A DNA stretch of 13,455 nt from a virus, in the UHGV virus genome UHGV-0114979. One strand, written 5' to 3'. The stretch's first letter is position 1. Every line of letters starts with the position of its first letter. Both the position numbers and the translations under genes were made by a program. Below the pieces are notes generated by a model. That model saw only the letters and a program-made list of their open reading frames with translations, made no database searches and had not been told where the DNA came from. Below are positions 2-6,184 of this stretch, in pieces.

Positions 2-1321
2 ACGCTTGGTCTGATCCGCGAAAACAATGAACTGGCTCGCTCAGGTGCAAATAACATTGGTCTGACCGCGTTGCGTGGTCTGGCTGGAGTTGCTGATATT
101 TACAATCAGGAACAGCAACAGAAAGCTATTAGTGCGTTCAATAAGGTTCACGCTGATGCATGGGCTTCTGGTGATCCATCGGGACTATTTAAGTTTGCCC
201 AGGAAAATCCAGCGTTTGTTGCACAGGCACAACAGGCGTTTTCCGGTCTTAATGATCAGCAACGCAACGATATGGGCGATTTAGCCATGAGGGCTAACGT
301 CGCTCTTTCTCAGGGACCGGAAGCCTACAGTAAATTCATTACTGACAACAAGGACAGGTTAAATCGCGTGGGGGCGAATGCTGACTGGATGATTCAGACA
401 GGTATCCAGAATCCAGAGCAGCTATCACACATGTTGACTACTATGTCTCTCGGTGCGCTTGGACCAGAAAAGGCGTTTGCTGTTCAGGACAAGATGGCTG
501 GTCGTGAAATTGACCGAGGCAAACTTGCAGAGACAATCCGCAGCAATCAGGCTGGAGAAGCACTTCAGGCGAGAGGGCAAAACCTTTCCTATCAGTCAGC
601 AATGACTGGACACAATATCGCAGCACAACGCTTGGCTCTGGATCAGCAAGAGTTCGGGTTTAAGATGCAGCAAGCACAGGAAAAGGCTCAGCAGTTGATT
701 AGCGAAGCACCTAAGCTGTCAGTAAACATGGAAAAAGGCATCGAGACGGCTGTAAACAATGCTACAGCATCATCAAACTCAGCCAATTCCATGAGTGCGC
801 TTGCTCAACAGTTCAGAGCAGAAAAACCAACGACAGGTTTGTTCGGTAACGCACAGAACATGTTCGCAAAACTTACCGGAAGCGATACAACATTGCGTGA
901 TTTGCGCATCCGCCAAAATGCCCTTGTTAACAGTCAGGTTCTTAAATTCCTACCTCCCGGCCCCGCAACGGATAAAGACGTTGAGATCGTTCGGCAGGGT
1001 GCACCAACTGACATGGATAACCCTGAGACGGTCGCAAGATGGCTTGATGCGATGGCAAACCTTGAGCGACGAAACGCGCAGTTTAATGAGTTTAAAGCCG
1101 AGTGGATGAGCGCGAATGGCAATCCAGGACAATCGCGTAATGGCGGTCAGATATTGGGGTTGGATGTTAAAAAAGGTGAATCATTGGGGAGTGCCGTTAA
1201 GCGGTATATGTCAATGAATACTGACGCAGCGCCAGCACAAGATTCGACACCTTCAGGAGAACCACGGAATCAGGTTGGATCATATACCTCAAAATCAGGC
1301 ATTCAATTTACGGTGGAATGA
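2..1321 (+). CDS. DNA-transfer (ejection) protein, P22 gp20-like; 5' end lies upstream of the window
   Basis: The reading frame is open from nt 2 to the TGA at 1319-1321; the ORF track's 71..1321 is only the first in-window start. The protein is Q/A/N-rich and non-hydrophobic. It sits directly upstream of the gp16-like gene with an ATGA stop/start overlap at 1318-1321. Assigned from gene order and size (about 440 codons in window against a recalled 471 aa for P22 gp20), not residue-level alignment. Confidence 0.7.
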
Positions 1322-3150
1322 TGAAAGTAACTGCAAACGGTAAGACATTTACCTTTCCTGATGGTACGAGCACCGAAGATATTGGCACCGCCATTGATGA
1401 GTATTTTGCTGGTCAGGCTGTTCAGCAACAAACAGTTAATCAGGCCAATAATACACCAACACGGGAAGAACCATCATTGATGCAACAAGCTGGTGATTGG
1501 CTCACAGGTGGTCAAAGTGCAGGGCAAATTGCAGAACAGGCTGGTCGTGGTCTGGTAAACATACCATTTGACGTATTGCAGGGTGGCGCAAGTCTGATTA
1601 ATGCAATCAGCCAGGGGCTTGGCGGCCCCAAGGTTTTGGATGATGTTTATCGCCCTGTCGAGCGACCAACAGACCCTTATGCGCAAGCTGGAGAAACAAT
1701 TGGCGGGTATTTAGTTCCAGGAGTTGGAACGGCAGGAAGCATGGCTATTGGATCACTGGCAGAGGCCGCAAATCAGAAAGGCGATTTCGCACAAAATGCA
1801 GCTAAAAATGCAGGAGTTAACCTTGCCGCTCAGGGGGTTCTTTCCGCAGCAGCAAAGGGAATAGGGCGTGGAATTACTGCTGTTCGTGGCGAAATATCAC
1901 CAGCAGATCAGCAATTGCTCAAGCGTGCCGCTGCGGCAGATGTACCAGTTATGACATCGGATGTAGTTCCTCCAAAAACAAAACTTGGCAATCAACTGCA
2001 GGGTTACTCAGAAGGAGTCATAGCTGGTACTGGACCAATGAGAGCCGCACAGCAGGATGCCAGAACCAAGCTTGTTAATCGCTTCACCGAAAAATACGGC
2101 GACTACGATCCATCTGTAGTCGTTGATAGTCTAAAGTCAGGCGTTGCAAGGGAAAAATCGTTAGCCAAGTCAAAACTAAACAGCCTGTCAGGAAGAATGG
2201 TTGGAAAGCCAGTTGATACAAGTGGCGCCATAAGAGCTATCGACGGAGCAGTAAACGAACTTGGGAAACTTAAAGGTGTTTCTGACACCCAGACCATTTC
2301 TGCGCTTAATGATTATAAGAATGCCATTCAGGAGATAACAAATGGAGATGATGCCTTTGAGTTACTTGATAAGCTGAGAACTCAGTTCCGCATTGACGTA
2401 AAAGGCGATCGTACAGTTCTGCCATCAATGTCGCAAACAATGGTCGACAGGGTCTATAACTCGCTAACCAATAGCCTTAGTAAATCTATAGCGAAAGGAC
2501 TTAGCTCAAAAGATGCTTCAGCATGGAGAGCGGGAAAAGCTGATTATGCAAAAATGGCAACACATGCAACTCAAACGCGCCTTAAAAACGTTCTAAACAA
2601 AGGAGATTTAACTCCCGAGGCTGTAAATACCATTGTGTATGGACAATATGGGTCAGATATAGCTCGATTGTACGGGAAACTCGATCAAAAAGGTAAAGAC
2701 ATGCTAAGGGCGGCATATATCAGCAAAATAGCTGACAAGGTAGGTGACAGCCCTCAGAAAATGATGACCGAGCTTGGCAAGCTGCAAAAACAAGCAAATG
2801 GTCAGGTGTTTAAAACTGTATTTGGTGGGAAGAACGGAAAAGAGATAGAGGGGATGTTATCTATTCTCGATGCTACCAAAAGAGCATCTGAGGCTAATGT
2901 TGTGACGAAGACTGGCATGACACTCGCGCCTTTGGTAAGGGTTATTGGTAACCTAAAAACCGGAGGCGCGCTATTGGCTGGGGAAACAGGGATTGGCCTT
3001 ATGTCGAGGGTTTATGAAAGCCCTATGGCCAGGAATGCGCTCTTACGTCTGGCAAACACCAAAGCAGGAACGCCAGCCTATGAAAGAGCATTAAGTAACG
3101 CTGCAAATGCCATCAGACCGCTGCTTGCCACTGAGGCAACACAGCAGTGA
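1318..3150 (+). CDS. DNA-transfer (ejection) protein, P22 gp16-like
   Basis: 610-codon ORF with tandem ATG ATG at 1318-1323, so the second ATG would give 609 aa, the length I recall for P22 gp16. Gly/Ala-rich, consistent with ejection proteins. It is the last gene of the late block before the immunity/cargo region, as in P22 (…7-20-16-sieA-mnt-arc-ant-9). Confidence 0.75.
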
Positions 3151-3167
3151 CTAAATGCCATGGATGG

Positions 3168-3356
3168 TTATTTCCCTAGCACATGAAACAATGTTTGCTT
3201 TAATTCCACCCATACAATTATGACCACTATAGACAGACAAAAGAAACTGAATGCATTGGCATCACGATCGAAACCTTCTCCGGCACTAAATCCGTAAAAG
3301 GTCATAAAAAATATAAAAATTGCGCACTTTGCAACGTTTACAAATTTTTTCTTCAC
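3168..3356 (-). CDS. Small (62-aa) membrane peptide with two hydrophobic helices, unknown function
   Basis: On the minus strand a near-consensus Shine-Dalgarno AAGGAGG (revcomp of 3362-3368) lies 5 nt upstream of a GTG start at 3356-3354. Translation is MKKKFVNVAKCAIFIFFMTFYGFSAGEGFDRDANAFSFFCLSIVVIIVWVELKQTLFHVLGK: a Lys-rich N-terminus and two hydrophobic segments separated by a charged turn. The ORF track's 87-aa version (start 3431) has no RBS and begins inside an operator repeat. Divergent from the 328-aa gene. Confidence 0.4.
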   Translation of the reverse strand: MKKKFVNVAKCAIFIFFMTFYGFSAGEGFDRDANAFSFFCLSIVVIIVWVELKQTLFHVLGK

Positions 3357-3419
3357 ACCAACCTCCTTAGTTTTGCGCAGGATACCAGATGATAATGTGT
3401 AGTTGGAGTAGCGCGGTTG

Positions 3420-3511
3420 TAATGCAAGCATTTTGTTTTAGTTTTATGCTTGCTTGTATGTGTGTACAGTGTATATAATGCAAGCATACATCACAACAAA
3501 GGTGCTTGCAT
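3420..3511. promoter_or_regulatory. Promoter for the 328-aa gene, embedded in four operator-like palindromic sites (TAATGCAAGCAT)
   Basis: Sigma70-like promoter on the + strand: -35 TTGCTT (3450-3455), 18-bp spacer, -10 TATAAT (3474-3479). Copies of the 12-mer TAATGCAAGCAT sit at 3420-3431 (+) and 3476-3487 (+, overlapping the -10 and start site). A reverse-oriented copy with one mismatch is at 3500-3511 (GTGCTTGCATTA), and a weaker reverse copy ATGCTTGCTT at 3446-3455 overlaps the -35. Each core is a near-palindrome, ATGC-NN-GCAT. Confidence 0.5.
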
Positions 3512-3512
3512 T

Positions 3513-4499
3513 ATGACTGAAAAGAAAAGTGGCGAAGGGAAAGCTAAGGGCGGGATCGCTCGCGCAAAGTCGCTGACTAAAGAGCAGCGTTCTGAAATAG
3601 CAAAGAAAGCAGCGGCAAAACGATGGGAAGGTAAGCCACTAAGAGCGATCAGAAAGGGTAACTTCATTGATGATTTCGGCATTGATGCAGAATGTTACGT
3701 ACTTGATGATAATGATAAAACGGTTGTAGTTAGTAAAACTGGTCTGGCTAAATTACTAGGAATCGGTGAGCATGGTAGGGATGTAGACCGTTTTCTAAAT
3801 ACGAATTATATGGCTGATTTTGTTGATCCATTTCTGCTAGAAAAATTCAAAAAACCTCTTATTTTTCAATGGAGAAGTCCGGTCCCAAACTCAGCCCCAA
3901 ATCCACTCGCTGATGAGGCTCACGGTTACGATATTGCCCTTATCGGTGATATAGCCACAGCAATGATTAATGCCGATCGAGCTGGCGCTCTACCGCCTTC
4001 AAGATCAAAATCTGCCAGCCTTGCCCAAAGACTTGTTACCGCATCAATGAAAGCAGGGCTTAAAGGACTTGGTTATGCTATTGCAGGATATCGACCTGAA
4101 GTACAGGAGGTTATTGATTCCTTCAAGGCCTTTGTTCGTGAAGAGGCGAGGCAGTATGAAAAAGAATTTCCAGATGAGCTATATGAGGAGTGGTATCGAC
4201 TGTACGGCCTGAACAGGCCAGAGAAGGGACGTCCAATTCGTTTTGGGCAGCTAACCAACATGCAGATATACACTCCGCTAGCAAAGAGTAAAGGTAAAAT
4301 CCTTGAACAGATTCGAGCCAGCCGAGACGAGAACGGAAAACAATCTGATAAGTTGCACCTGTTCCTTTCTGAAATTGGTGTCAAGGCTTTGCGTCAGCAT
4401 ATCGGTAAGCTTCTTGGTGTCGCAGCGATGAGCGAGACAAGAGAAGAATACGAAAAAGGAATAGAAAAGGTTTTTGGAAGAATAAAACCAGAAATCTAA
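3513..4499 (+). CDS. Hypothetical 328-aa protein with a basic Lys/Ala-rich N-terminus, occupying the sieA-equivalent cargo slot
   Basis: Long ORF; the ORF track starts at TTG 3450, but ATG 3513 is preferred, with a purine-rich AAAGG 10 nt upstream. The N-terminus is MTEKKSGEGKAKGGIARAKSLTKEQRSEIAKKAAAKRWEGK, a basic segment that looks like a nucleic-acid-binding tail. The rest is hydrophilic with no transmembrane segments and no catalytic motif I can recognise. Followed by a strong bidirectional terminator. Confidence 0.8.
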   Translation: MTEKKSGEGKAKGGIARAKSLTKEQRSEIAKKAAAKRWEGKPLRAIRKGNFIDDFGIDAECYVLDDNDKTVVVSKTGLAKLLGIGEHGRDVDRFLNTNYMADFVDPFLLEKFKKPLIFQWRSPVPNSAPNPLADEAHGYDIALIGDIATAMINADRAGALPPSRSKSASLAQRLVTASMKAGLKGLGYAIAGYRPEVQEVIDSFKAFVREEARQYEKEFPDELYEEWYRLYGLNRPEKGRPIRFGQLTNMQIYTPLAKSKGKILEQIRASRDENGKQSDKLHLFLSEIGVKALRQHIGKLLGVAAMSETREEYEKGIEKVFGRIKPEI

Positions 4500-4501
4500 T
4501 T

Positions 4502-4529
4502 AAAAAACCCACCTTCAGGTGGGTTTTTT
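4502..4529. terminator. Bidirectional Rho-independent terminator shared by the convergent 328-aa gene and mnt
   Basis: AAAAAACCCACC-TTCA-GGTGGGTTTTTT: 7-bp G/C-rich stem (4507-4513 / 4518-4524), 4-nt loop, A-run on the left and T-run on the right. The mnt stop codon (revcomp of 4515-4517) lies in the loop, and the right arm plus T-run encode the Mnt C-terminus …KKPT. Confidence 0.8.
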
Positions 4530-4769
4530 ATCTTCTCCGTACATGCTGCTGAGAGTCTTTAGAAGAGCCTCCCTAAATTTTTCAGATTCTTGTTGAGCAA
4601 AACCTTCTATTGTTCTTGGTGATTTTTCTTCATCAATAGCAGCTTGCAAGATCATAACTATTTCTGAATTTAATGAGCGTCCGTTTTTCGATGCTCTTAT
4701 GGTCAGGTCGCGCTTGAGGCTATCTGGCATTCTTACGCTATATGGGGCTATGTCTCTAACCTTCGTCAT
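4515..4769 (-). CDS. mnt: Mnt-like ribbon-helix-helix repressor (immI region)
   Basis: 84 aa: MTKVRDIAPYSVRMPDSLKRDLTIRASKNGRSLNSEIVMILQAAIDEEK… The N-terminal beta-strand/helix pattern and the NGRS-x-NSE signature match the Arc/Mnt (MetJ-Arc) family. Size matches P22 Mnt (about 82 aa as recalled). Divergent from arc across an operator-rich intergenic region, as in P22 immI. Confidence 0.8.
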   Translation of the reverse strand: MTKVRDIAPYSVRMPDSLKRDLTIRASKNGRSLNSEIVMILQAAIDEEKSPRTIEGFAQQESEKFREALLKTLSSMYGEDKKPT

Positions 4770-4878
4770 ACTTACACCGTGATGATCACATTGATATCAC
4801 AGTGTATTCAAAAAAATTTTGACTTGATATACTCACAGTGATATGTTTGTGATTCACAATAACTCACGTGGTGGCAAT
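4770..4878. promoter_or_regulatory. Divergent mnt/arc-ant promoter-operator region (Pant/Pmnt analogue)
   Basis: 109-bp intergenic between divergent RHH repressor genes. Palindromes: GTGAT-G-ATCAC (4779-4789), TGATATCA (4792-4799), TCAC-A-GTGA (4833-4841), TGTGA-T-TCACA (4848-4858). Candidate rightward promoter: -35 TTGACT (4819-4824), 17-bp spacer, -10 TATGTT (4842-4847). The TCACAGTGA palindrome sits in that spacer and TGTGATTCACA near the start site. I could not place the leftward mnt promoter with confidence. Confidence 0.55.
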
Positions 4879-5031
4879 ATGGAAAAAGAAGTTAGCAGAA
4901 TTTTGGTGAGAATGCCTCAGTCGCTAAAAGATGCGATTACTGGAAAGGCCAAAGAAGAATGCCGGTCGTTTAACTCGGAAGTGATTAAGCGATTGCTGGA
5001 CAGCCTGAAGAGAGAGGGGGTGGTGGTATGA
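4879..5031 (+). CDS. arc: Arc-like ribbon-helix-helix repressor
   Basis: 50 aa from ATG 4879, with GGTGG 4 nt upstream; the ORF track's 4843 start adds 12 residues with no RBS. MEKEVSRILVRMPQSLKDAITGKAKEECRSFNSEVIKRLLDSLKREGVVV resembles P22 Arc (53 aa as recalled), including RS-x-NSE and the C-terminal KKEG-like motif. Confidence 0.8.
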   Translation: MEKEVSRILVRMPQSLKDAITGKAKEECRSFNSEVIKRLLDSLKREGVVV

Positions 5032-5219
5032 AAAACCGCAGATGTTGTTTTTGTGGGTGTAGTAAAGAAACGACTGGCAGGGGCTTTGTTGTGTCAAAAA
5101 ATACCGAAGAAGCAATTTGTGACTCATGCGTTACAGATATTGTTATTTTCATGCATGGCGAGAAGGGGTTAGATGAAAAGCTAGAGAGTATTCCAGTTGA
5201 AGGCGCTGATAAAAGTTGA
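5028..5219 (+). CDS. 63-aa C4 zinc-ribbon protein resembling the ClpX N-terminal zinc-binding domain
   Basis: The start ATG overlaps the arc stop (ATGA at 5028-5031), and a GAGGGGG purine tract lies upstream. MKNRRCCFCGCSKETTGRGFVVSKNTEEAICDSCVTDIVIFM… has C-x-F-C-G … I-C-D-x-C-V with about 21 residues between the Cys pairs, the same pattern as the ClpX zinc-binding domain (…CSFCGKS…ICDECV…). The C-terminal 25 residues are acidic. Confidence 0.6.
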   Translation: MKNRRCCFCGCSKETTGRGFVVSKNTEEAICDSCVTDIVIFMHGEKGLDEKLESIPVEGADKS

Positions 5220-5285
5220 AGCCCCAACTGCTGTAACAGTCAGGGCTTCGGTTGTCGGTAAATCCTTGGAGAAAAACCAACATGA
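5210..5285 (-). ncRNA. Candidate sar-like antisense RNA covering the ant ribosome-binding site and start codon
   Basis: On the minus strand a -10-like TATACT (revcomp of 5288-5293) would start transcription near 5282; the -35 is weak. Transcription would run leftward across the ant SD (GGAG 5268-5271) and ATG (5282-5284) into a hairpin (stem GAAGCCC 5218-5224 / GGGCTTC 5243-5249). On the minus strand the hairpin is followed by AACUUUUAUC. Predicted length is about 70 nt, matching the 68-69 nt I recall for P22 sar, which has the same position and polarity. Confidence 0.3.
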
Positions 5286-6184
5286 ATAGTATAGCAATTT
5301 TAGAAGCAGTGAACACCTCTTACGTACCATTCAACGGTCAGCAAATTATCACCGCCATGGCTGCCGGAGTTGCATATGTTGCGATGAAGCCAATCGTTGA
5401 AAACCTTGGAATGAGCTGGTCAACGCAGCAAACAAAACTCATGAAGCAGATTAGCAAATTCAACTGTGTTCATATGAACATGGTTGCCGCTGATGGGAAG
5501 CTTCGTAAGCTACTCTGCCTTCCTTTGAAGAAGCTAAATGGATGGCTGTTCAGCATCAACCCTGAGAAAGTTCGTGCTGACATCCGCGATAAACTTATTC
5601 AGTACCAGGAAGAATGCTTTACTGTGCTGCATGACTACTGGACGAAGGGAAAGGCAGAAAATGCACGTAAGAAAACATCTGTTGATGACAGGACTCCGCT
5701 TCGTGATGCTGTAAATATGCTAGTCAGCAAAAAGCATCTAATGTACCCAGAAGCTTATGCAATGATTCATCAGCGTTTCAATGTGGAAAGTATTGAAGAG
5801 CTTGATGCATCTCAGATACCGCAAGCAGTAGAGTACATCCACAGGGTAGTGCTTGAAGGTGAGTTCGTCGGCAAACAAGAGAAGAAAACCAACGAGCTTT
5901 CTGCAAAAGAAGCAAACAGCCTTGTATGGTTATGGGATTATGCCAACCGCTCACAGGCATTATTCCGCGAACTGTATCTGGCGCTAAAACAAATTCAATC
6001 GAACTATTCCGGCAGATGCTACGACTATGGCCATGAGTTCTCGTATGTTATCGGAATGGCGAGAGACGTTTTAATCAATCACACACGAGATGTTGATATT
6101 AATGAGCCAGACGGACCAACGAATCTTTCCGCATGGATGAGACTTAAGAATAAAGAATTACCTCCTTCAGTACATAACTACTGA
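5282..6184 (+). CDS. ant: Antirepressor Ant (P22 Ant N-terminal-domain family)
   Basis: 300 aa from ATG 5282, with GGAG 10 nt upstream; the ORF track's TTG 5252 start is rejected. [56 protein letters not shown]… matches the phage antirepressor N-terminal domain family. It lies downstream of arc, as in immI, and the length equals P22 Ant (300 aa as recalled). Confidence 0.85.

Follow-up and report, generated by a model that had tools for sequence, protein, structure and literature searches.

A gene for a predicted small membrane protein in the sieA slot of P22-like prophages

The window analysed here is a stretch of 13,455 nucleotides (nt) of the virus genome UHGV-0114979 and comes from a P22-like (Lederbergvirus-type) prophage, of whose virion gene block it forms the right end. 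Its positions 3100-3560 are 99.6% identical to several complete Escherichia coli chromosomes. At 3168-3356, on the minus strand and convergent with the gene 16 homologue, the window carries an open reading frame (ORF) for a peptide of 62 amino acids (aa). The region between genes 16 and 9 is the 'ant moron' of Casjens and colleagues (PMC2629481), which in P22 contains sieA, hkcC, 59a, mnt, arc and ant (PMC2629481; P22 annotation). Comparative analysis indicates that the peptide gene replaces sieA in the sieA slot, that it begins with the sieA start region and that its product is a conserved, mostly unannotated small protein of predicted membrane location. The features of the locus are listed below.

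3168..3356, minus strand: coding sequence of a predicted two-helix membrane protein, 62 codons, GTG at 3356-3354 and stop codon TAA at 3170-3168
3362..3368, minus strand: Shine-Dalgarno (SD) sequence AAGGAGG with a 5-nt spacer to the GTG; SD, spacer and GTG are identical to those of P22 sieA
3357..3400, minus strand: sieA-type leader; GGTATCCTGCNCAAAACTAAGGAGGTTGGT (3386-3357) is common to P22 sieA and mostly to HS1 sieA-B
3389..3394, minus strand: TATCAT, a candidate -10 hexamer, which aligns with a 2-nt offset with the 3' end of the annotated P22 PsieA
3151..3167: convergent spacer of 17 nt, CCATCCATGGCATTTAG in minus-strand reading, between the two stop codons; putative downstream linker of the slot
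1318-3150, plus strand: gp16, the gene 16 homologue, an ejection protein; constant convergent neighbour, with PF26808 or the gp16 position in related loci

Organization of the peptide gene

Around the peptide start the minus strand reads ...ctAAGGAGGttggtGTGaagaaaaaattt..., or over a longer stretch ...ctAAGGAGGttggtGTGaagaaaaaa..., and the translation is V/MKKKFVNVAKCAIFIFFMTFYGFSAGEGFDRDANAFSFFCLSIVVIIVWVELKQTLFHVLGK. The near-perfect SD sequence and the GTG start had been recognised correctly in the initial annotation of this DNA, and the conserved form of the protein is the one of 62 aa. The program-made ORF list gives the same frame as 87 aa, from an upstream ATG at 3431. The gp16 stop codon ends at 3150 and the peptide stop codon lies 17 nt away in convergent orientation. 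The 17 bp are a spacer and not the overlap with the 3' end of gp16 that had been reported.

No terminator-like site was found at the leader or at the gene 16 junction, and folding there was no better than that of shuffled sequences (z = 0.25 and 0.65 for the leader). The TATCAT hexamer (3394-3389) has no convincing -35 partner. In a looser promoter scan of the minus strand the best match, TTGTGA-17-TACACT at 3496-3468, was weak (8 of 12 positions). Transcription would be predicted to begin near 3379-3383 with TATCAT as the -10, or at about 3461 with the promoter at 3496-3468.

Conservation of the reading frame

The length of the ORF is within chance, with 71 ORFs of at least 40 aa in the window. 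The ORF was judged real because it is conserved and not because of its length. A word-indexed search recovered 62-aa homologues of 79-82% identity from Salmonella and Serratia (P0005-P0010), and an exhaustive profile search added seven more distant relatives of ~32-53% identity (P0016-P0022), which are 61-66 aa long except for one 98-aa call. Members of the family are carried by P22-like phages and by prophages in E. coli, Salmonella and Serratia, and relatives come from metagenomes. A scan of one genome per species gave a single locus, in Serratia fonticola, and the family is thus taxonomically narrow.

For comparison with the window, 64 other family loci (cited by L numbers) were collected by exact-protein look-ups and from IMG/VR, GTDB, GenBank phages and RefSeq, and the peptide was located in them by a hidden Markov model. 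Among the seven distinct coding sequences of the close set (~80-100% aa identity) no indels were seen and the stop position is the same. The start position is kept as well, as GTG in E. coli and Salmonella and as ATG in Serratia, where an in-frame stop three codons upstream of the ATG fixes the 62-aa form. An SD-like motif (AAGGAGG, AAGGGGG, GAGGAGG, CGGAGG, TAGGAG, AAGAGG or GGGAGG) is found ahead of the start in nearly all loci, even though they differ completely in sequence farther upstream. Conservation of the peptide and its SD in related phages, which the initial annotation had named as a check, extends to homologues of ~32% identity.

The ratio of non-synonymous to synonymous substitution rates (dN/dS; Nei-Gojobori, NG86) was 0.14-0.42 for the diverged pairs, with a synonymous excess (Fisher p = 0.004-0.007). 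Between the window and L003, for example, 9 synonymous changes were counted at 37 sites and 11 non-synonymous changes at 146 sites (Fisher p = 0.007). Residues K10, F14, M18, G22 and W49 are invariant across the family alignment, S37, F38, I43, I46, I47, E51 and K53 are near-invariant, and helix 2 ends with a nearly invariant W-x-E-x-K motif. The pattern of conserved residues is helix-periodic and hydrophobic.

These data were weighed against the view that there is no functional gene and that the ORF is kept only as a DNA recombination linker or transcription signal. The E. coli copies by themselves say little on selection at the protein level, since they are at least 99% identical in 87 of the 89 carrying genomes, and most annotation pipelines skip the peptide. 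Against this, frame, length, start and stop are retained down to ~32% aa identity, where little similarity remains between the DNA sequences, dN/dS is clearly below 1, the conservation follows hydrophobic helix periodicity, and neither RNA structure nor a terminator was found. The linker or signal explanation is thus highly improbable. On comparative grounds, 3168-3356 on the minus strand is very probably a genuine protein-coding gene.

The peptide matches the profile of PHROG 21338 over its full length (E = 4.3e-45, residues 1-62 against positions 1-62 of 62). This family carries no functional annotation, and membership in it therefore gives no functional information. Searches of Pfam (no family at E <= 0.1), NCBIfam and PADLOC with the peptide and its distant homologues returned nothing meaningful; the PADLOC/NCBIfam output was one chance-level match for a distant homologue. 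No description of the family was found in the literature searched.

The sieA slot

P22 sieA lies 22 nt from the gene 16 stop codon in convergent orientation, and sieA-B of the E. coli prophage HS1, the experimentally validated type B sieA (PMC10883804), lies 21 nt from it in the same orientation. The sequence upstream of P22 sieA reads ...ttttttCATGGTATCCTGCACAAAACTAAGGAGGTTGGTGTGtct... and its equivalent in the window ...ttatCATctGGTATCCTGCGCAAAACTAAGGAGGTTGGTGTGaag...; leader, SD and GTG of the peptide are those of P22 sieA (CATGGTATCCTGCACAAAACTAAGGAGGTTGGTGTG). In the Salmonella loci L005 and L006 the leader is CATGGTATCCTGCACAAAACT(A/G)AGG(G/A)GGTTGG(T/C)GTG. The leader GGTATCCTGCNCAAAACTAAGGAGGTTGGTGTG is common to P22 sieA and the peptide, and the promoter hexamers upstream of it differ. 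The CAT immediately in front of the shared block marks the end of the annotated PsieA (P22 13861-13891), and the block thus corresponds to the 5' untranslated region, SD and start codon of sieA. On the gene 16 side the spacers are similar, CCGTCCTTGGC after sieA and CCATCCATGGC after the peptide, and CC(A/G/T)TCC(A/T/G)TGGC is kept 3' of both the peptide and P22 sieA. From these comparisons, the leader at 3357..3400 is the predicted upstream recombination linker of the slot.

HS1 sieA-B is located 64 nt downstream of the gene for a 213-aa helix-turn-helix (HTH)/S24 repressor, and its leader acacattatcatccggtgttctgctcaaaactAAGGAG is the same as in JEP4 and in the window up to the SD (AAGGAG). 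In JEP4, L044 and L057-L062 the repressor that precedes the peptide has 100% identity to that of HS1. As the identical repressor is followed by sieA-B in one case and by the peptide in the other, the two genes alternate as cargo of a single site, the backbones around it being otherwise matched. SieA of type A or B was detected in none of the 65 peptide loci (tblastn, E <= 1e-3).

SieA (PF26849) and the peptide share the slot adjoining gene 16 between genes 16 and 9 on the anti-late strand, the leader, SD and GTG of the P22 version, and a predicted nature as helical inner-membrane proteins. They differ in that SieA has 162-212 aa and 3-4 transmembrane segments (PMC10883804) whereas the peptide has 62 aa and two helices. 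The C-terminal FxRYPxEAxxFNK motif of SieA (PMC10883804) is missing from the peptide, in which only a faint, non-significant GEGF(D/N)R resemblance is seen. A weak BLASTP match of 27 residues at the SieA motif was non-significant (E = 0.28), and homology to SieA was rejected by profile-profile comparison (hhalign, below). Pfam, whose PF26849 annotates SieA matches, gave no match to the peptide (E <= 0.1).

The start codon of P22 SieA is uncertain, giving a protein of 162 or 164 aa (Leavitt et al., PMC10883804). In the P22 sieA region (L009, 3829-3865, minus strand) the SD, the 5-nt spacer and the GTG are common with the peptide family. The shared start region bears on this choice and supports the GTG (164-codon) start.

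Predicted structure and topology

The initial annotation described a lysine-rich N-terminus and two hydrophobic helices, and this description held. Four of the first ten residues are lysine, Kyte-Doolittle windows place hydrophobic stretches at about residues 5-25 and 35-50, and AlphaFold2, run with a 12-sequence alignment, predicted a helical hairpin with helices at 2-25 and 29-59 (mean predicted local distance difference test score 87.9). The flanking charges are +4 at the N-terminus, -2 in the loop and +1 at the C-terminus; the loop is acidic (SAGEGFDRDANA) and the C-terminus mildly basic and amphipathic. By the positive-inside rule, this suggests that both termini would be cytoplasmic and the loop periplasmic.

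A lipoprotein or cleavable signal peptide was rejected on inspection of the alignment, in which C11 varies, with K in front of it, and in which position -3 before the loop has no small residue. A Foldseek search against BFVD gave 192 matches at E <= 10, none of them at E <= 0.001 and all generic helical hairpins. A sequence search of the PDB with the family profile returned nothing at E <= 1.

Neighbouring genes of the peptide across loci

The downstream ORF is convergent with the peptide in all 65 loci, with a gap of -4 to 45 nt that is usually 17 nt. Wherever the locus is complete, this convergent gene is a gp16 homologue, with few exceptions. In L025-L027 a 95-aa ORF lies between the peptide and gp16, in Serratia fonticola a truncated remnant is found downstream, and L008 is the third exception. 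At L008 (Salmonella, GCA_010566485.1, 5299-6189) the repressor is 99.5% identical to the HS1 type, tape-measure and tail genes lie around it and gene 16 does not adjoin; the locus looks like a chimeric prophage. In L033 (E. coli E189, 934-1995) an identical peptide lies beside a very different gene 16 region, part of which RefSeq lists as a partial pseudogene that contains a lytic transglycosylase domain. Over its C-terminal 150 aa, the downstream ORF there has 15-18% identity to other gp16 proteins.

The upstream neighbour is variable, with more than 12 architectures besides the P63C-domain gene of the window. It can be an HTH/Peptidase_S24 repressor of 213 or 286 aa, an Arc/Mnt-like protein, a Fic protein, a PEGA-like lipoprotein, a Panacea-domain gene that faces the peptide or a PIN-domain gene 127 nt before it; in some loci nothing lies between and the peptide faces the tailspike gene directly. 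The neighbours (lipoprotein, Rap1a-like, Fic, PIN and Panacea proteins and immunity repressors) are of envelope, defence or toxin-antitoxin type.

In Salmonella a 161-aa lipoprotein with an LLAGC lipobox often precedes the peptide (L010-L014, 5483-5968); it belongs to PHROG 6067, which has no functional annotation. In Serratia (L015-L019, ~5644-5999) a Rap1a-like periplasmic protein ends 1-9 nt before the peptide ATG, and the Rap1a-like family comprises immunity proteins of the type VI secretion system. These arrangements of lipoprotein or Rap1a-like protein with the peptide may be operons of envelope-protective cargo.

The initial annotation considered the peptide and the divergent 328-aa gene of the window, a P63C-domain gene, as a possible two-component module with shared operators. 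The features between and at these two genes are the following.

3422..3511: four ATGCWWGCAT palindromes, at 3422, 3446, 3478 and 3502 (spacing 24, 32 and 24)
3450-3479, plus strand: promoter of the P63C gene, TTGCTT-18-TATAAT, bracketed by the palindromes
3513-4499, plus strand: P63C-domain gene, 328 aa (Pfam P63C, 9e-14), divergent from the peptide gene here and not a conserved partner

The palindromes overlap the -35, the -10/+1 and the start codon of the P63C gene promoter, which judging by this arrangement looks like a tightly repressed one. ATGCWWGCAT is not enriched in the sequence as a whole (6 matches against 4.0 expected); the clustering of four copies within 90 bp is what stands out. 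In vB_EcoP-611R6, and in part in ST104-like phages, the palindromes accompany the P63C gene.

The divergence of the two genes across 156 bp that contain the four palindromes, the position of the leftmost palindrome (3422-3431) ~30 nt upstream of the candidate -10 of the peptide, and the recurrence of the pairing in 17 complete E. coli genomes would fit a co-regulated pair. The P63C gene is, however, the neighbour in only ~8 of the 65 loci, and the peptide has the many other upstream architectures described above. Phage vB_EcoP-611R6 matches the window at 98% identity over the P63C gene and the full intergenic region as far as the SD and GTG. It lacks the peptide, however, and from the shared GTG reads another ORF, of ~109 aa, whose product has a transmembrane segment at its N-terminus and a coiled coil. 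Homology to the window extends to 3400 in JEP4, to 3409 in phiv205-1 and to 3374 in UPF_BP1, and from 3354 upward in 611R6, so that the breakpoints fall between the two genes (3354-3409). Variable neighbours and breakpoints in or beside the leader indicate that the peptide is an independent cassette and not one half of a P63C module, which is very unlikely. The 611R6 ORF (L020, 3674-4078, minus strand; homologous to window 3354-3520) is listed in GenBank as 134 aa from an upstream ATG and is thus mis-started like the peptide.

Proposed function

As a broad class, the peptide is likely to be a prophage-expressed cargo protein acting at the level of the envelope. It is best explained as cargo of the sieA slot that acts in the inner membrane, most likely in superinfection exclusion, a proposal by analogy to which we would give slightly less than an even chance; the exclusion function taken by itself is put forward tentatively, at that level or somewhat below. 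The initial annotation had named superinfection-exclusion peptides among its guesses, and this guess fits the evidence of the sieA slot. In such a role the peptide would be analogous in function to SieA, T4 Imm and HK97 gp15, though not their homologue.

T4 Imm (83 aa) is also small, has two hydrophobic helices and is annotated as acting on DNA transfer across the membrane. Its mechanism would be a plausible model for the peptide, which fits in size and predicted hairpin. The two differ in that Imm is expressed early by a lytic phage of a different group, whereas the peptide is carried by prophages. HK97 gp15 is of the same length as the peptide (62 aa) and is annotated as a moron product within the structural-gene region; it is reportedly (work of Cumby et al., 2012) a moron-encoded, membrane-anchored superinfection-exclusion protein that blocks DNA entry. 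It has one N-terminal hydrophobic helix and a charged tail, in contrast to the two helices of the peptide, and, unlike the peptide gene, the gp15 gene is co-oriented with the tail genes and possesses a terminator of its own.

The following course of events can be envisaged. Like sieA, the gene would be transcribed from the prophage. Its transcripts would come either from a weak promoter that borders the shared leader or, by read-through, from an upstream gene expressed in the lysogen (repressor or cargo), a source that is obvious in many loci. The product would become an inner-membrane protein, with both ends cytoplasmic and a short acidic loop on the periplasmic side. The lysogen would then be protected at the envelope, entry of the DNA of a superinfecting P22-like phage being blocked because the peptide disturbs either the gp16/gp20 ejection conduit or some host factor in the inner membrane on which this conduit depends. 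YajC, which is discussed by Leavitt et al. (PMC10883804), could be such a factor. Shared leader, SD and start on one side and the conserved gene 16-side spacer on the other would let unrelated exclusion genes swap. This more specific picture, in which the hairpin is a minimal stand-alone blocker of the conduit or host factor and the sieA locus a site of cassette exchange, is possible but more doubtful than the general proposal.

Several observations weigh against an exclusion factor of the sieA slot. Position in a cargo hot-spot is guilt by association, and the slot also holds unrelated genes, such as the ORF with transmembrane segment and coiled coil in 611R6. At L008 the pair of repressor and peptide is found inside a siphovirus-like prophage. 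A consensus promoter scan of the leader region of the window found no promoter for the peptide. Of the SieA types A, B and C, the search for co-occurrence covered A and B. Comparison by hhalign gave the peptide family a probability of 0.4% against a 10-sequence SieA alignment, and 0.3% and 0.1% for homology to T4 Imm and HK97 gp15, respectively. Finally, identical peptides adjoin gp16 C-termini that are only 15-59% identical, which gives no evidence of specific pairing with gp16.

Co-evolution with the gp16 C-terminus was considered and discarded, as the Spearman rho of 0.55 equals the expectation from linkage and no specific pairing was seen. At the level of sequence, this lack of co-variation argues against a gp16-specific partner role and would be compatible with a breadth like that of SieA. 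SieA tolerates diverse ejection proteins, and how it recognises proteins of such diversity is unclear (Leavitt et al., PMC10883804). Only about one third of the sequenced P22-like phages carry sieA (Leavitt et al., PMC10883804).

The same evidence for gene status, membrane nature and moron location would also be expected of a small inner-membrane protein expressed from the prophage with a lysogenic-conversion role other than the exclusion of P22-like phages. Such a protein could modulate a host transporter, a sensor kinase or Sec/YajC, in the manner of MgrB, AcrZ or SgrT, or could defend against unrelated phages. The very varied cargo of the slot region, the occurrence of L008 in a prophage that is not P22-like and the absence of co-variation with the gp16 C-terminus would all suit it. 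It does not account as well for the use of exactly the slot and leader of sieA, for the absence of sieA from the loci sampled, or for the adjacency to gene 16, which is kept in homologues of only ~32-44% identity even where nothing else lies before the tailspike gene. A conversion role of this kind is therefore somewhat unlikely.

A small membrane toxin was also weighed, be it of type I toxin-antitoxin kind, an abortive-infection pore former or holin-like, with expression held down by the convergent late transcript or an antisense RNA. The peptide is small and very hydrophobic, and toxin-antitoxin-type genes are nearby in some loci. As only a 17-nt gap separates the gene from the late operon, with which it converges, late transcripts extending past gene 16 would run antisense to the peptide gene. 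Type I toxins, however, typically have a structured 5' untranslated region that sequesters the SD, an antisense RNA gene or both, and neither was found for the peptide, whose SD is strong and whose leader is unstructured. A consensus scan of the opposite strand, in itself weak evidence, found no separate antisense promoter or terminator. The peptide is stably carried in 89 complete E. coli genomes and hundreds of Salmonella assemblies, where its gene often comes last, after that of an immunity repressor with constitutive expression. In place of a single generic transmembrane segment the peptide has two helices, in which polar positions are conserved, and a conserved loop. A holin, to which the initial annotation had likened the peptide, would be expected to be expressed late from a lysis cassette beside endolysin and spanin genes. 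The peptide gene is instead found on the anti-late strand, flanked by gene 16 and the immI/tailspike region, and the lysis genes of HS1 lie elsewhere; the holin comparison is thus not borne out. A toxin of any of these kinds is unlikely.

If the peptide does act as an exclusion factor, a 62-aa protein would offer a much simpler handle on the block of gp16/gp20 delivery at the inner membrane, and the slot would be a swap site for non-homologous exclusion genes.

Prevalence and annotation

Peptide DNA was found in 89 of 5426 complete E. coli genomes, and HS1-type sieA-B in 21. An exclusion-active peptide would thus be about four times as common as sieA-B in these genomes and almost never annotated. 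The expectation that ORF callers would miss or mis-start the gene proved right. None of the three GenBank phages with the peptide (phiv205-1, JEP4 and UPF_BP1) has it annotated, and a feature lies under it in 4 of the 60 RefSeq E. coli records listed from the 89 carrying genomes. The one annotated record examined, NZ_CP135488, has the 87-aa form from the upstream ATG, which is a mis-start. Some of the 62-aa Salmonella and Serratia versions are NCBI entries as hypothetical proteins. In practical terms, RefSeq omits a conserved small protein in most of the 89 E. coli genomes that carry it.

Other genes of the window

The remaining genes of the window are the following.

71-1321: gp20, ejection protein
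4515-4769, minus strand: Mnt/Arc-like gene
4843-5031: Arc-like gene
5028-5219: small cysteine-rich ORF
5252-6184: Ant
6363-8564: tailspike
8635-9627, minus strand: acyltransferase
10656-11834: integrase

The GC content is 34.9% for the peptide gene and 30.7% for the acyltransferase gene, as compared to 47-48% for gp16 and gp20 (gp16 46.8%). The AT-richness of the peptide and acyltransferase genes is typical of acquired moron or lysogenic-conversion cargo.

The cysteine-rich ORF (5028-5219, plus strand, 63 aa) lies between arc and ant, at the position of the P22 sar region, and has a CxxC...CxxC pattern. A Pfam search with it gave no match. Its residues 2-47 align weakly (E = 0.028) with residues 4-45 of the ClpX N-terminal zinc-binding domain (PDB 6vfs). 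The Arc-like ORF (4843-5031, plus strand) is 62 aa as listed, whereas its RefSeq form is 50 aa from an internal ATG (L032, 3280-3432); the longer form is probably a mis-start.

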